Assembly (NCBI GenBank): GCA_963664245.1
Contig: OY760934.1
Location: 2,300,376-2,364,375 of the forward strand
Reading direction: 5' to 3'
Source of the DNA: Bacteroidales bacterium
GTDB lineage: Bacteria > Bacteroidota > Bacteroidia > Bacteroidales > GCA-2711565
DNA length: 64,000 nt
Below are positions 8,604-41,791 of the stretch, piece after piece. A model generated the notes under the pieces. It did not search any database. It saw only the letters and a program-made list of their open reading frames with translations, and was not told the origin of the DNA. The translations under genes and the position numbers were made by a program. Every line of letters starts with the position of its first letter. Within the stretch, counting starts at the first letter, position 1.

Positions 8604-10239
8604 TTTTTTGATTTATCTCATGCAATCGGCTTTTTGTTTGGCCGCTTTATACCTGATATACTGGTTGTTTTTACGTAAAGATACTTTTTTCAGGGCCAAC
8701 CGTTTTTACCTAATTTCTTCCTTGTTTTTATCGTTTACATTACCTTTGTTTAAGGTTCCGGTTTTTTATAGCGATCCGGAAGTGACCTACGTGGTTATAC
8801 TCGAAACTGTTAATATAACCGCCGAAAATATTTCATCGGGTATTATGAACAATTGGACCATTTATCAAACCCTGCTGATTATATATCTTACCGGGGTTGT
8901 TTTGTTTCTCATCCGTTTTATTTTTCAATTGTTTCAGCTGTTTTGGATCATTAATAAATATGGAGTAGCTGAAGAGAACGGCTTAAAAATTGTTAAGCTT
9001 GAAAAAAACTTTTCTTCTTTTTCCTATTTCAATTATGTTTTTTTGAGCGAAAGCATTACAAGTGATAAAAACCGCAATGAAATTATTAAGCATGAAATGG
9101 CTCACATTCAACAGCGCCATAGTTTAGATCTTATTATCCTGGAGCTTTTTATTGTTTTTCAATGGTTTAATCCGGTTATCTGGCTGTATAAGTTTTCACT
9201 AAAAGGAATTCATGAGTTTTTGGCTGATGACAAATTGCTTTCCAGCGGAACAAATAAATTGTTTTATCAAACCCTGTTATTAAATCAATTGGTCGGGATT
9301 CAAATCAACGACCTTACGAATAATTTTAACCAATCTTTAATTAAACAACGTTTTATTATGATGACAAAAATCAAATCGAAGGGAAAAGCAAAATGGAAAT
9401 ATATCTTGCCGGTTCCCGTAACTGTTTTATTGATTGCTTTTTTTGCAGTTAATTTAAACCAAAATACTTTTGCTTCCGAAACAAAAGAAGAAGTAAAAGC
9501 AACGGAAACAACAACTCCCAAAGAAGATTTGGCAAACCAGAAAGAAGACTCAAACGAGTCTATATTTATTGTGGTTGAAGATATGCCTAAATTTCCTGGT
9601 GGGGAACAAGCTCTAGGGCGATTTTTAAGAGACAATATTAAATATCCTGAAGAAGCCCGTAAAAAAGATATCCAGGGGAGAGTGTATCTCACTTTTATTG
9701 TTGAAAAGGATGGATCGTTAACCAATTTTAAAGTTGTCAGAGGTATTGGCCATGGATGTGATGAGGAAGCCATAAGGGTTGCTAAAATGATGCCTAAATG
9801 GGAACCGGGAAAACAAAGAGGAAAAGAAGTAAGGGTTCAGTTTCATTTACCGGTTAGATTTGTTCTTAATACGAATGCTAAAGTAGCTGATGATACTAAA
9901 AAAGTAGTTTTTGTTAAGGGAGGTACAGAAGAAGGTTTAGAAAATCTACTGGAATACCCGGGCGGAAAAGAAGAAGTGCGCAGATTTATTGCCGAAAACA
10001 TAAAATACCCGGAAGATGCAAGAAAAGAAAAACTTGAAGGAACCGTTTTTGTTACTATTGTTGTTCGGGAAGACGGGAGTGTTGATAATCCGAGAATTAA
10101 GAACGGGGACGGAATAAGTGCTAGCCTGGATGAAGAAGCAATAAGGGTCGTTAAATTGATGAAATTTAAACCATATAAACAAAACGGGAAACCGGCAATT
10201 GCCGTGATGACTTTGCCCATAAAATTTTCGTTAAACTAA
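8596..10239 (+). CDS. BlaR1-like M56 peptidase signal transducer fused to two TonB C-terminal domains
   Basis: N-terminal TM helices and the M56 zinc motif HEMAHIQQRHSLD. The C-terminal half carries two tandem TonB_C-like repeats (...FPGGEQALGRFLRDNIKYPEEARKKDIQGRVYLTFIV... and ...YPGGKEEVRRFIAENIKYPEDARKEKLEGTVFVTIVV...). Confidence 0.75.
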   Translation: MNDFLIYLMQSAFCLAALYLIYWLFLRKDTFFRANRFYLISSLFLSFTLPLFKVPVFYSDPEVTYVVILETVNITAENISSGIMNNWTIYQTLLIIYLTGVVLFLIRFIFQLFQLFWIINKYGVAEENGLKIVKLEKNFSSFSYFNYVFLSESITSDKNRNEIIKHEMAHIQQRHSLDLIILELFIVFQWFNPVIWLYKFSLKGIHEFLADDKLLSSGTNKLFYQTLLLNQLVGIQINDLTNNFNQSLIKQRFIMMTKIKSKGKAKWKYILPVPVTVLLIAFFAVNLNQNTFASETKEEVKATETTTPKEDLANQKEDSNESIFIVVEDMPKFPGGEQALGRFLRDNIKYPEEARKKDIQGRVYLTFIVEKDGSLTNFKVVRGIGHGCDEEAIRVAKMMPKWEPGKQRGKEVRVQFHLPVRFVLNTNAKVADDTKKVVFVKGGTEEGLENLLEYPGGKEEVRRFIAENIKYPEDARKEKLEGTVFVTIVVREDGSVDNPRIKNGDGISASLDEEAIRVVKLMKFKPYKQNGKPAIAVMTLPIKFSLN

Positions 10240-38886: not shown

Positions 38887-39651
38887 ATGTCACAAGAATA
38901 TACTCCTTCAGAATTATTGATTTGTTTGGCTTCCCGGGTGATGGAAGACGAAAGCACGGCTTTTATCGGAACGGGAATCCCTATGCTGGCCGCCAGCCTG
39001 GCGCAAAATATGCATGCCCCCAACCTTATTCCTATTTTTGAGTTTGGCGGAACCGGGGCCGTTTTGGAAAAACTTCCGTTGGCCGTGGGCGATATGCGAA
39101 CTTTTAATAAAGGTATTGCTGCTTCCGGTATTTGCGATATCATGGAAACCGCCCAGCGTGGTTTTGTGGAATTTGGTTTTTTGGGCGGGGCTCAAATTGA
39201 TGCCTATGGTAATTTGAACTCCACGGTGATTGGCGATTATGCCAAGCCCAAGGTGCGCTTGCCCGGTAGTGGCGGTGCCAACGATGTGGGTTCGTGTTGC
39301 TGGCGAACCATTGCCATTATGCGCCACGACAAACGCCGCTTTTTGGAAAAGATAGATTTTGTTACCACTCCCGGATACTTGGATGGTCCCAATTCCCGCG
39401 AAGAAGCCGGCTTACCCAAAGGTAGCGGCCCCTACCGCGTGGTGACCAATTTATGTGTGATGGGTTATGACGACGAAAGCAAGCGCATGAAACTATTAAG
39501 TTTGAATCCAGGCGTTACCAAAGAAGAAGTGATTGAAAACACTGGCTTTGAGCTTTTGTTTGCCGATGAAATTACCCATAACCACCCACCCACCACCGAA
39601 GAACTTAAAATCTTACGCGAACAGGTTGACCCGGATGGGTTGTATAGGTAG
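38887..39651 (+). CDS. CoA-transferase subunit B
   Basis: 254 aa with the beta-subunit pattern IPIFEFGG...LPGSGGANDV. Confidence 0.75.
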   Translation: MSQEYTPSELLICLASRVMEDESTAFIGTGIPMLAASLAQNMHAPNLIPIFEFGGTGAVLEKLPLAVGDMRTFNKGIAASGICDIMETAQRGFVEFGFLGGAQIDAYGNLNSTVIGDYAKPKVRLPGSGGANDVGSCCWRTIAIMRHDKRRFLEKIDFVTTPGYLDGPNSREEAGLPKGSGPYRVVTNLCVMGYDDESKRMKLLSLNPGVTKEEVIENTGFELLFADEITHNHPPTTEELKILREQVDPDGLYR

Positions 39652-39660
39652 TAAAAATTT

Positions 39661-40431
39661 TTAATTTAACGCAAATTCAGAATTACACAGTTCTTTTTTG
39701 CTCCAAGGGATATGTTTAACATTATAATTATCTAAAGCACTAACTATATCTTTTGAAACCTCTTTTTCAATGTCATTGTATAGAACAAAGTTTCTTGTTT
39801 GGGTTTCTCTTGTTTGATTAATGTCATTAAATGCCATTATTGAAGACAAAATGTTATCTTTTTTTACATTATTTATTGTCCTAATTAATCTTTCTGGTTT
39901 GTTTTTTGATTCTGGTATTAAAAAATCAATATTATGATCAAAACCACTTTTTCCAGTAAGCTTAATATCTTTTGAGAAAAATACATTATTACTTCTAAAA
40001 TATAATTCAACGTCTTCTTTAAATAATGAATAAACTGTTTCTTGGGCAAGATTAAATAAATCATTAACTGCTAAAATAGCTTGAAGTAAATAATGTTTTT
40101 TTTGTCCAACACTATTTAATGTTGCATCTACATATAATTGATCATCATCTGAGATTTTAACTCCAAACCCATTTAAAGCTGTTTTTAAAATACTTTCTCT
40201 TTTTGGTGTATTTATTTCTAACCCAGACATTCTTAAATCTGAAATTGTATAACCATTATCTGTAAGCTGAAAATTCCCATTATTTTTTATTAAATATATA
40301 TCTAAATGATCATTATGTCTATCAAGAAAAGGAGTAGATATAGAACATATTTCCCCCTCTTCAATAGTTTTAACTATTGTATTGTTTTTTATCCAATTGA
40401 TATATTCGGTAATTACGTTTTGACAATTCAT
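39661..40431 (-). CDS. DUF1828/DUF1829-like protein (unknown function)
   Basis: 256 aa. The N-terminal pattern ISTPFLDRHNDHLDIYL...LTDNGYTISDL is as I recall for DUF1828, and the C-terminal half is DUF1829-like. The start shares one base with the upstream stop (TAATG). Confidence 0.5.
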   Translation of the reverse strand: MNCQNVITEYINWIKNNTIVKTIEEGEICSISTPFLDRHNDHLDIYLIKNNGNFQLTDNGYTISDLRMSGLEINTPKRESILKTALNGFGVKISDDDQLYVDATLNSVGQKKHYLLQAILAVNDLFNLAQETVYSLFKEDVELYFRSNNVFFSKDIKLTGKSGFDHNIDFLIPESKNKPERLIRTINNVKKDNILSSIMAFNDINQTRETQTRNFVLYNDIEKEVSKDIVSALDNYNVKHIPWSKKELCNSEFALN

Positions 40432-40871
40432 TAATCAAATATTGAAAATTCAACACTTGGTAACCGTTTAATATTACAAAAGTACATTAATTTAGTGAAA
40501 ATTTTTTCAATAGAATCTTCCTTGTTAATCCCAATCTTTGATATTGGAAATGCAAATTTATCATTATATCCTTCTCTGTATAAATGTATATGTGGCCCAT
40601 CAAAAGTAATTCCATCAGGGTTTGTATGCCTTCCCCCATTATCATATCGAAATAATATTATGGTTTGTCTATAACGTTTATTATAAGTGTATTTTGATAG
40701 TTCAAAGCTTCCCCTATAAAAATCTAATAAAAAGATTTCTTTAGTTTCTAAGGAATTAATCTGTCTCGTCCATTTGATTGGAGCCGGTCCTAATTTTATC
40801 GAAGTTTTATAGTCGTCAAAGCCCTTTTCTTGTTTTATTAAATATTCGTATTCGCTTTGAGTAATAGCCAT
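40431..40871 (-). CDS. hypothetical 146-aa protein (His/Asp-rich motif RHTNPDG...GPHIHLY)
   Basis: Clean ORF and first gene of the coupled pair. No family I can name. Confidence 0.5.
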   Translation of the reverse strand: MAITQSEYEYLIKQEKGFDDYKTSIKLGPAPIKWTRQINSLETKEIFLLDFYRGSFELSKYTYNKRYRQTIILFRYDNGGRHTNPDGITFDGPHIHLYREGYNDKFAFPISKIGINKEDSIEKIFTKLMYFCNIKRLPSVEFSIFD

Positions 40872-40979
40872 AATTGTAAATGTTTAATAAAATTATAGGC
40901 AAAAACTATAAAGTTCTGCCAAATCTTTTGGGGAGTACTCAAATATACAAAAAATCCACTTGAAAAAAAATATTAATTT

Positions 40980-41110
40980 CCCTCCTGTTTTAGGAGGGGG
41001 GGGTCGCCAGCTGGCGGACGGGGGGGTAATGCTTCGACTCCGCTCAGCATGACCGGAATCTGAGTTTTTGTCAAACCTTCCTTTAATTCCCCTCCTTGCC
41101 AAGGAGGGGA
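40980..41110. repeat. mosaic of GC-rich hairpin repeat units (REP-like)
   Basis: Hairpins: CCCTCCT/AGGAGGG (40980-40998), the palindrome CGCCAGCTGGCG (41005-41016) and TCCCCTCCTT/AAGGAGGGGA (41088-41110). The unit TTCGACTCCGCTCAGCATGACC (41033-41054) is also found at 63406-63448. Confidence 0.7.
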
Positions 41111-41119
41111 GTAAGAGTT

Positions 41120-41791
41120 TTAAAATTCCATTTTGAAAACCTCTACAAAATAATGCTTCAGTTTTTCCTGTACTTCGGCCAGGTCAACTTCTTTTCCGAG
41201 TTCGGCTTTTAAAGAAGTTACGCTTTTGTCAGTAATGCCACAGGGATTTATGTACGAATAATAATTCAAATCAGTATTGATATTAAAGGCAAAGCCGTGC
41301 ATGGTCACGTAGCGGCTGGCACGAACTCCGATGGCACAAATTTTACGGGATTTTGGTGTTTCGGTGTCCAACCAAACCCCGGTGGCTCCGTCCAGACGTT
41401 CCGTTTTTAAGCCGTAATCGGTCAGGGTTTGGATAATTACCTCCTCCATGGCATGAATGTATTGCTTTACGCCCATTTCGAATTGTTCCAGATCGAGTAT
41501 GGGGTAACCCACAATCTGTCCGGGGCCGTGAAAGGTAATATCACCCCCACGATTGATTTTGAAATACTCAATGCCGTGTTTTTCCAAGAAATCTTTACTC
41601 ATCAGCAAATTGCTTTCAGCTCCGCTTTTCCCCAGAGTGAACACGGGTGGGTGTTCGCAAAACAACAGGTAATTATCGTTGATTTTTTTGTTTTGTTTTG
41701 CTTTCAGCAATTCCTGAAACAACTCTTCCTGGTAATCCCAGGCTTTTTGGTAGGATATGTTTTTAAAATCTTGGTAAATCGTTTTTTTCAT
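41120..41791 (-). CDS. lipB: lipoyl(octanoyl) transferase LipB
   Basis: Start trimmed to ATG 41791. Motifs are RGGDITFHGPGQ and KICAIGV. Confidence 0.9.
   Translation of the reverse strand: MKKTIYQDFKNISYQKAWDYQEELFQELLKAKQNKKINDNYLLFCEHPPVFTLGKSGAESNLLMSKDFLEKHGIEYFKINRGGDITFHGPGQIVGYPILDLEQFEMGVKQYIHAMEEVIIQTLTDYGLKTERLDGATGVWLDTETPKSRKICAIGVRASRYVTMHGFAFNINTDLNYYSYINPCGITDKSVTSLKAELGKEVDLAEVQEKLKHYFVEVFKMEF

Follow-up and report, generated by a model that had tools for sequence, protein, structure and literature searches.

Two overlapping genes between lipB and a CoA-transferase pair

The 64,000-nucleotide stretch of Bacteroidales contig OY760934.1 studied here (assembly GCA_963664245.1, positions 2,300,376 to 2,364,375; hereafter the window) holds, between lipB and a pair of CoA-transferase genes, a cassette of two minus-strand genes, A and B (Table 1). 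By its profile matches this cassette is a new copy of PDC-M24, a catalogued, uncharacterised candidate system, and represents neither a new kind of system nor a named, validated one. A first-pass annotation, made by a model from the letters of the window and a list of their open reading frames (ORFs), had described the two ORFs and their TAATG overlap exactly, as judged by the ORF listing and the sequence: the + strand reads ATTCATTAATCA at 40426-40437, and on the minus strand the stop codon TAA of A and the ATG of B share base 40431.

The same annotation had reported a sharp, AT-rich break in composition, with hand counts of 32 G+C in 39661-39780 (27%) and 29 in 39541-39600 (48%). Both counts are reproduced on recount, and the cassette is the most AT-rich 1.2 kb of the window. 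Its G+C content over 39661-40871 is 26.4%, about 11 points under the mean of the 64-kb window, with 47-49% in the CoA-transferase genes, 41% in lipB and 45% in lipA. Among sliding windows of 1211 nt (mean 37.9%, standard deviation 3.1%) it is the lowest-GC stretch of its size, only 0.24% of windows reaching its low value. The flanks had been read as core metabolism, and domain matches agree, with CoA_trans twice on one side and LplA-B_cat (lipB) plus Radical_SAM and LIAS_N (lipA) on the other. CoA-transferase B ends at 39651 and is convergent with gene B, 9 nt separating the two stop codons.

Table 1. Coordinates of the two genes, their domains, the neighbouring flank and the cargo alleles found at the same position in relatives
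Feature	Coordinates	Strand	Description
Gene A	40431..40871	-	146-aa ORF, DUF6978 protein, PDC-M24A component; putative effector
Gene B	39661..40431	-	256-aa ORF, DUF1828+DUF1829, PDC-M24B component; putative partner, sensor or antitoxin
TAATG stop/start overlap of A and B	40429..40433	-	Translational coupling
Conserved core of A, R75-E100	40572..40649	-	R..H82-x-N84-P85-D-G...H94-x-H96-x-Y98-x-E100; candidate active or ligand site
DUF1828 domain of B, residues 33-122	40066..40335	-	PF08861, E 7e-28, 97.2 bits versus cut-off 22
DUF1829 domain of B, residues 160-246	39694..39954	-	PF08862, E 1.5e-28, 99.5 bits versus cut-off 22.2
Exchangeable cargo segment	39646..40927	.	1282 bp, 26% GC; without homology to L030, L031, L032, L119
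TATATTTG box	40940..40947	-	Conserved flank just upstream of cargo; putative promoter
Two G+C-rich hairpins with GC-rich core between them	40973..41109	.	Conserved lipB-side flank
Slot cargo, window			PDC-M24 pair A + B, 26% GC
Slot cargo, L030, L031, L032, L119			Single unannotated 297-aa ORF, 25-29% GC
Slot cargo, L120	L120:4349-7656		395-aa unknown ORF + 707-aa TIG/Kelch beta-propeller protein, 29% GC
297-aa cargo ORF	L032:6880-7773; L030:7019-7765; L031:7486-8334; L119:4986-5834		25% GC

Match to the candidate system PDC-M24

In a comparison with PADLOC-DB v2, protein A matches profile PDLC04538 (PDC-M24A) with E 8.6e-41, its residues 1-141 aligning with profile positions 1-141 of 146, and protein B matches PDLC04539 (PDC-M24B) with E 1.5e-92, residues 1-251 aligning with positions 1-251 of 255. 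The two hidden Markov models are thus matched by adjacent genes on the same strand, A then B, which is the gene arrangement expected of PDC-M24. The first-pass annotation had placed the cassette outside the systems that it recognised; this holds insofar as no named, validated system applies, but the pair had already been catalogued. PADLOC PDC systems are computational candidates, proposed from their recurrent embedding in known defence loci (PMC12881386). No NCBIfam model matches A or B. An ordinary metabolic function, which the annotation had set against its own proposal, finds no counterpart here: structure and sequence searches assign neither protein to metabolism, and no metabolic family occurs among the domain-model matches of either.

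Distribution and pairing of A with B

A scan of GTDB species representatives with the A profile returned 23 loci in Bacteroidota and Acidobacteriota, among them Flavobacteriaceae, Chitinophagales, Bacteroidales, Saprospiraceae and others, together with Pyrinomonadaceae and Chloracidobacterium of the Acidobacteriota. B follows directly after A in all 22 loci in which this could be tested, the 23rd being cut at a contig end. The spacing between the two genes lies between -1 and +3 nt in 16 of the 17 loci measured (L009 is unmeasurable, with an early stop in A), and the pair is more AT-rich than its surroundings in 22 of 22 loci holding both genes. A scan of IMG/VR with a diverse B alignment found 76 viral contigs at 23-45% identity, and A adjoins B in 69 of the 71 that have a full-length B. 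The 69 are made up of 59 contigs with A upstream by a strict rule, six with A upstream and hidden by an over-extended ORF call, and four in which the genes are convergent. The DUF6978 profile, which represents the family of A, detects 829 clusters (50% identity) among 1.84 billion representative proteins.

Further to that, hmmsearch with the family profiles confirmed the pair in Staphylococcus phage phiSP119-3, Lactobacillus prophage Lj965 (Ljo_0292/Ljo_0291), Streptococcus satellite Javan357 and the IncP plasmid pRSB223. In Javan357 (MK448450.1) the A gene is an intact DUF6978 ORF at L035:2839-3297, unannotated in GenBank and lying upstream of an 'Lj965 prophage protein'. Homologues of A also occur in an Acetobacter plasmid, in phages MissF and TMW 1.1365 P3 and in S. 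aureus phage 37. Whether A always comes with B was judged from close homologues and from tblastn matches in phages and plasmids. Among the 829 DUF6978 clusters is a metagenomic protein of 398 aa, P0373, that carries DUF6978 (residues 28-143), DUF1828 (175-264) and DUF1829 (302-388) on one polypeptide; it may be a natural fusion of A with B or an artefact of read-through.

We conclude that A and B are a conserved, mobile and near-obligate pair across phyla, phages, satellites and plasmids. The first-pass annotation had named a failure of the two families to co-occur elsewhere as an observation that would count against it; what is seen is the opposite, with the pair recurring in the GTDB loci and viral contigs at the rates given above, in Firmicutes prophages and on an IncP plasmid.

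Genomic company

A survey of the surroundings of the prophage copies drew on about 46 non-redundant viral contigs, which gave 102 immediate neighbours; in 43 of the 76 viral loci the contig ends within 4 kb of the B match. These neighbours include 25 tyrosine integrases, 3 serine recombinases, 16 HTH_3 proteins, 8 S24 (CI-like) repressors, 8 ImmA-like M78 proteases and 2 Ltp superinfection-exclusion lipoproteins. Prophage copies of the pair sit in the lysogeny module, a part of temperate phages that the lysogen typically expresses. In Lj965, for example, the pair lies between repressor and metalloprotease genes on one side and a superinfection-exclusion gene and integrase on the other.

Among chromosomal copies the company is varied. 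In L040 and L041 the pair lies inside a type I restriction-modification (R-M) operon with the order hsdM, hsdS, A, B, hsdR; in L039 it is two genes away from a NACHT/SNaCT5 protein, and in L037 MazG and PIN_2 genes are nearby. Defence models matched among 125 pooled neighbouring ORFs comprise MADS, type II methyltransferases, MkoA, PD-T4-6 and PDC-S01/18/37. The wider neighbourhood is housekeeping in Gramella (L038), in the marine Flavobacteriaceae UBA3356 locus L024 and in the window. We conclude that the association of the pair with defence loci is real and not universal. In L024, two small ORFs directly upstream of the pair (9069-9985) match HNH-endonuclease PHROGs with E 4e-22 and 3e-5, which hints at a small mobile islet.

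Protein A and its conserved core

No family had been named for the 146-aa protein in the first-pass annotation, whereas A is a full-length member of Pfam family DUF6978 (PF22398; E 6.6e-31, 107.8 bits versus a gathering cut-off of 29.6). The stretch which that annotation had singled out as distinctive (RYDNGGRHTNPDG...GPHIHLYREGY) is the conserved core of DUF6978. Across 123 DUF6978 representatives with 27-54% identity to the A protein of the window, K16, R75, N84, P85, H94, H96 and A107 are invariant and R66, H82, Y98 and E100 nearly so, and the core R..H-x-N-P-D-G...H-x-H-x-Y-x-E is retained in the phage and plasmid homologues. The invariant His/Asn/Arg cluster looks like a hydrolytic or otherwise catalytic site, or a metal site.

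The AlphaFold2 model of A is confident (predicted local distance difference test, pLDDT, 91; predicted template-modelling score, pTM, 0.85) and shows, between one helix at each terminus, a sheet of seven to nine strands that is mostly antiparallel. A Foldseek search of this model against BFVD gave a single borderline match, to an uncharacterised phage protein, and sequence and profile searches of A and DUF6978 against all PDB chains gave nothing useful. Residues 45-114 of A match Pfam TumE (PF20126/DUF6516) with E 0.004 and 17.6 bits, under the gathering cut-off of 23.4. We treat kinship of A with TumE as a lead only, with homology not established.

Protein B and its two domains

For the 256-aa protein, a DUF1828 N-terminal part followed by a DUF1829-like C-terminal half had been proposed in the first-pass annotation, and both domains are found above the Pfam gathering thresholds, in that order. 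B also matches phrog_5059 (E 2.8e-73), and both A and B fall in PHROG families of unknown function. A nine-sequence alignment spanning phyla and including distant homologues leaves Y10, W13, P34, D37, D41, D58, G60, T62, K112, Q117, N123, D124, G160, D169 and D220 of B invariant.

The model of B is of low confidence (pLDDT 67.7, pTM 0.39), and its fold matches were taken only as leads. In Foldseek searches the C-terminal half gave weak matches to PD-(D/E)xK nucleases (E 2e-3 to 1e-1, template-modelling (TM) score 0.13-0.27), the best being Kpn2I (E 1.9e-3), followed by Card1, VC1899, MspJI, Can2 and BstEII; the N-terminal half gave weak YbjN-like matches. D169 is invariant, whereas the would-be (D/E)xK positions E180 and K184 vary, with T in Lj965 and N in phiSP119-3. 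Since E180 and K184 are not conserved, an active canonical PD-(D/E)xK nuclease is not supported for B. A 49-residue local match of the B family profile to the HAD phosphatase KdsC (PDB 3n07; E 0.006), spanning B residues 45-93 (about 40153-40299; 'IY..LTDDGYT..L...G.EI'), was alone in coming near significance among the sequence and profile searches of both proteins against all PDB chains, and was set aside as probably due to chance.

L088, L089, L095 and L100 encode proteins shorter than B whose match is confined to its DUF1828 half (residues 1-129). No DUF6978 neighbour is present there, and DUF1828 can therefore occur with other partners.

Disruption of A beside intact B

Among the 22 GTDB loci that hold both genes, A is disrupted in five, by a nonsense change at codon 52 in L009 and by frameshifts in L016, L017, L020 and L023, and B is intact in all 22. 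Were every base of the two genes at equal hazard, all five disruptions would fall in A, the shorter gene, with P = (438/1206)^5 = 0.006; these loci come mostly from metagenome-assembled genomes, so that assembly errors are possible in the counts. Such an imbalance is what one would expect of a costly or toxic A and a harmless B.

Two loci from one marine population (L026:1689-1915 and L027:10438-10664) show the reverse, with B disrupted and A intact: in two independent assemblies they share a 16-bp insertion in B, accompanied by 31 nt that repeat the end of A in inverted orientation (3' end). This could be a genuine variant or an artefact of assembly at a junction.

An exchangeable slot behind a conserved flank

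Five genomes have a LipB protein 93-94% identical to that of the window and nucleotide flanks 96-97% identical, and all five are without the A-B pair. Their common gene order is LysRS, lipA, lipB, the slot, CoA-transferase B and CoA-transferase A, continuing with hemerythrin, RecO and PorZ in L030-L032, the three loci long enough. Homology by blastn to L030, L031, L032 and L119 stops at 40928, 57 nt upstream of the A start codon, and picks up again at 39645, within the final codon of CoA-transferase B. Between these points three cargo alleles are found among the six genomes (the window and its five relatives; Table 1). The cassette is accessory cargo, horizontally acquired, and the slot that it fills between lipB and the CoA-transferase genes is hypervariable. 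Agreeing with this, the insertion between conserved operons described in the first-pass annotation is borne out by the different cargo that close relatives carry in the same slot, and conservation of the pair at this position, which had been named as evidence to the contrary, is not what these relatives show.

The mode of exchange was considered from the cargo ends. An integron-like or integrase-mediated insertion was rejected, there being no flanking direct repeats and no recombinase at the ends of the cargo; a swap by homologous recombination in the conserved flanks is more likely.

In L031 and L119 an IS200/Y1 transposase (E 2e-36) interrupts the 297-aa cargo ORF, and in L030 the ORF is truncated at the 5' end. 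It has no Pfam, PADLOC or phage match and no useful match in PDB. We note in it the string 'YDIRSKLVHTG', a putative Rx4H motif of the HEPN type. It may be another gene of the defence or abortive-infection type.

Just upstream of the cargo, the conserved flank contains the sequence TATATTTG, which matches the Bacteroidota -7 promoter box (consensus TAnnTTTG) and is kept ahead of all three cargo alleles, L120 included. It is likely a promoter for whichever cargo fills the slot, and the slot as a whole looks like an expression site with swapped content.

Further towards lipB, the first-pass annotation had described GC-rich hairpin repeats. They are present, as CCCTCC...GGAGGG hairpins at 40980-40998 and 41090-41108 within the 248-bp intergenic region 40872-41119, with a chance expectation of none, but they are not a feature of the cassette. 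The region is kept in L030-L032 and L119, and L120 has only the lipB-proximal hairpin; because relatives that lack the cassette have it, the hairpins are part of the conserved lipB flank rather than of the insert. On the minus strand they resemble terminators for lipB. Between 40973 and 41109 two 27-nt direct repeats, 78% identical and containing one hairpin each, surround a GC-rich core of about 85 nt, within which lies the near-palindrome GTCGCCAGCTGGCGGAC. The single hairpin of L120 suggests that 40973-41109 may be a small insertion, similar to a miniature inverted-repeat transposable element (MITE) or a repetitive extragenic palindromic (REP) element, or a structured RNA. No Rfam match was found in 39500-41300, and a repeat family within the 64-kb window was rejected, with no further copies of the hairpins there.

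Proposed function and alternatives

We consider it quite probable that A and B form a selfish module of one kind or another, whether of the defence or the addiction type. On balance, we further favour an abortive-infection or toxin-antitoxin-like anti-phage module in which A would be the effector and B a restraining or sensing partner. The defence part of this proposal is drawn from the PDC-M24 match, the embedding in an R-M operon in L040 and L041, the proximity to a NACHT gene in L039 and the niche in prophages. The first-pass annotation had seen in the cassette the profile of a toxin-antitoxin, abortive-infection or other anti-phage cassette; the catalogue match and the mobility of the pair speak for that reading, while the role itself is drawn from context. 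The specific assignment of roles, A as effector and B as partner, is tentative, and is suggested by the disruption of A in 5 of 22 loci against none for B and by the enzyme-like invariant His/Asn/Arg core of A.

In the mechanism that we propose, A would be a harmful effector of alpha+beta fold with a hydrolytic or metal site formed by R75, H82-x-N-P-D-G, H94-x-H96 and E100. It may act as a His-dependent hydrolase-like enzyme, and its target may be RNA or translation, as has been proposed for TumE toxins. B, co-translated with A, would bind and restrain A, sense infection, or do both, and a phage cue would release or activate A, so that growth of the infected cell stops. We also entertain, as a possibility short of an even chance, that PDC-M24 is an abortive-infection system with a new mechanism, in which a DUF6978 effector, its fold without a characterised relative and its catalytic centre made of His, Asn and Arg, would be held inactive by a DUF1828-DUF1829 protein that senses a phage cue, and in which DUF1829 would be reused for the control of unrelated toxins, the HipA-like kinase of DS-6/HipAD among them.

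A number of observations weigh against the proposal of an anti-phage module with A as its effector. The name PDC-M24 appeared in no paper found by our literature search, nor did that search find a report of experiments on the A-B pair. The 125 pooled neighbouring ORFs are mostly housekeeping, with a minority matching defence models, and many chromosomal copies, that of the window included, stand alone among housekeeping genes. In the four convergent viral loci (L057, L059, L060 and L074 of IMG/VR) A and B face each other tail-to-tail on opposite strands, with A overlapping the 3' end of B, which means that co-translation is not universal in the family. The 16-bp insertion of L026 and L027 falls at codon 3 of B and leaves A intact, which is unexpected if B is an essential antitoxin; when it is counted, five of six disruptions are in A, and P rises to about 0.03. 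B is also more conserved than A, with 70-82% versus 56-72% identity among close homologues and 30-40% versus 22-31% among distant ones, and many toxin-antitoxin pairs show the opposite pattern. Searches for known relatives add to this list: Foldseek found no relative of the A model in PDB (best E 0.68), the TumE match has E<0.01 in only 2 of the 123 DUF6978 representatives and is sub-threshold, sequence and profile searches of B against all PDB chains gave nothing useful, and no DNA-binding antitoxin domain (helix-turn-helix, HTH; ribbon-helix-helix, RHH; or AbrB) was found in A or B by Pfam at E<=1.

The greater conservation of B is also among the points that would fit a reversal of roles, in which B would be the effector, acting on nucleic acid through a degenerate PD-(D/E)xK DUF1829 domain, and A a regulator, sensor or enzymatic antitoxin. 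The best Foldseek matches of the B model are PD-(D/E)xK proteins, a small gene in first position is the usual antitoxin order, and D37, D41, D58, D169 and D220 provide invariant acidic residues. We nevertheless regard the reversal as unlikely: the model behind those matches is of low confidence and their TM scores are 0.13-0.27, E180 and K184 are not conserved, A has the more enzyme-like invariant motif, and the loss of an antitoxin beside an intact toxin should not be tolerated, whereas A is the partner inactivated in 5 of 22 loci and B in none. A plain type II-like addiction module, which would stabilise prophages, plasmids and islands and have no role in phage defence, seems a little less probable still. 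It would account for the bicistronic arrangement with overlapping or near-abutting genes, for the occurrence on an IncP plasmid, in prophages and in satellites, for decayed A beside intact B, which resembles orphan antitoxins, and for the weak match of A to the TumE toxin. It accords less well with copies inside a type I R-M operon and near a NACHT gene, with the stereotyped place beside integrase and repressor genes, where superinfection-exclusion genes of the Ltp type also occur, and with the absence of a DNA-binding antitoxin domain by Pfam. Many validated toxin-antitoxin modules are, moreover, also anti-phage, so that this explanation overlaps with the one that we favour.

It is very improbable, in our judgement, that the pair serves the temperate phage itself, in control of lysogeny and induction or in the interplay of helper and satellite, with chromosomal copies as prophage remnants. 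The constant place between integrase and CI/ImmA-type regulators in prophages and satellites is what such a function would lead one to expect, but the window, L024, L037-L039 and L040 carry the pair as a 1.2-kb cassette without a prophage, and its presence on an IncP plasmid and inside an R-M operon is better matched by an autonomous two-gene role. That A and B are ordinary housekeeping or metabolic genes tied to lipoate or CoA-transferase metabolism is effectively refuted by synteny. Only their position between lipB and the CoA-transferase genes would suggest it, and against it stand their absence from the five relatives with near-identical flanks, a G+C content far under the window mean, the recurrence of the same pair in unrelated contexts across phyla and phages, and the lack of any metabolic family match.

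If the pair is anti-phage, as we favour, it would bring to bacterial immunity a new effector fold and would give a role to DUF1829, a domain newly seen in a validated system. Both proteins are functionally and structurally dark. The pair is widespread: it turns up in Bacteroidota and Acidobacteriota from the environment, on an IncP plasmid, and in lactobacilli, Staphylococcus and Streptococcus as part of prophages and satellites. The locus shows that cargo of the defence type can exist as a lone 1.3-kb cassette between housekeeping operons, outside defence islands. It also provides a natural set of near-isogenic genomes, with three cargos behind one promoter-like box, which suits swap experiments. 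The interest of the case rests on the breadth of the family, on two proteins without known fold or activity and on the natural allele series at the slot; the pair is a well-supported target for experiments.

Comparison with known systems

At the sequence level the cassette shows no difference from PDC-M24 and is a member of it. With type II toxin-antitoxin systems it shares a compact bicistronic operon and coupled genes (TAATG), and it differs from them in that no DNA-binding antitoxin domain (HTH, RHH or AbrB) was found in A or B. The PD-(D/E)xK fold, as represented by Kpn2I, the nuclease domains of Card1 and Can2, and MspJI, supplied the weak top Foldseek matches of the C-terminal half of B; the canonical D...(D/E)xK triad, however, is not conserved in the B family, and the model of B is of low confidence. 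The prophage copies resemble Ltp and Sie genes in their niche between integrase and CI/ImmA regulators in temperate phages and satellites. Ltp and Sie are membrane proteins or lipoproteins that block DNA entry; family scans found no membrane or lipoprotein feature in A or B, and no dedicated signal-peptide or transmembrane prediction was made.

TumE of the TumE-TumA toxin-antitoxin superfamily (DUF6516) is an alpha+beta protein without a PDB match and a toxin that inhibits translation; its toxicity when expressed, the neutralisation by its cognate neighbour and the block of translation were established by experiment (Durairaj et al. 2023, PMC10584680). A is similar in being small and alpha+beta, with two helices packed on an antiparallel sheet, without a PDB match and encoded in a bicistronic pair. 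TumE, however, is usually the downstream gene, behind a small partner, whereas A comes first, ahead of a two-domain partner of 256 aa. The closest functional comparison for B is DS-6/HipAD, a defence system validated by experiment, in which the protein predicted to partner a HipA-like kinase has the architecture DUF3037-DUF1829; its authors hypothesise a toxin-antitoxin-like action with the DUF1829 protein in the antitoxin-like position (DefensePredictor, PMC13092281). Both systems consist of two genes, a toxin-like one first and then a partner containing DUF1829, the toxin role in PDC-M24 being inferred. They differ in that the toxin of DS-6/HipAD is a HipA-family kinase and not a DUF6978 protein, and the N-terminal domain of its partner is DUF3037 and not DUF1828. 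DS-6/HipAD is the one functional precedent for DUF1829 and as such counts in favour of the proposed module, in which DUF1829 may play a comparable role.

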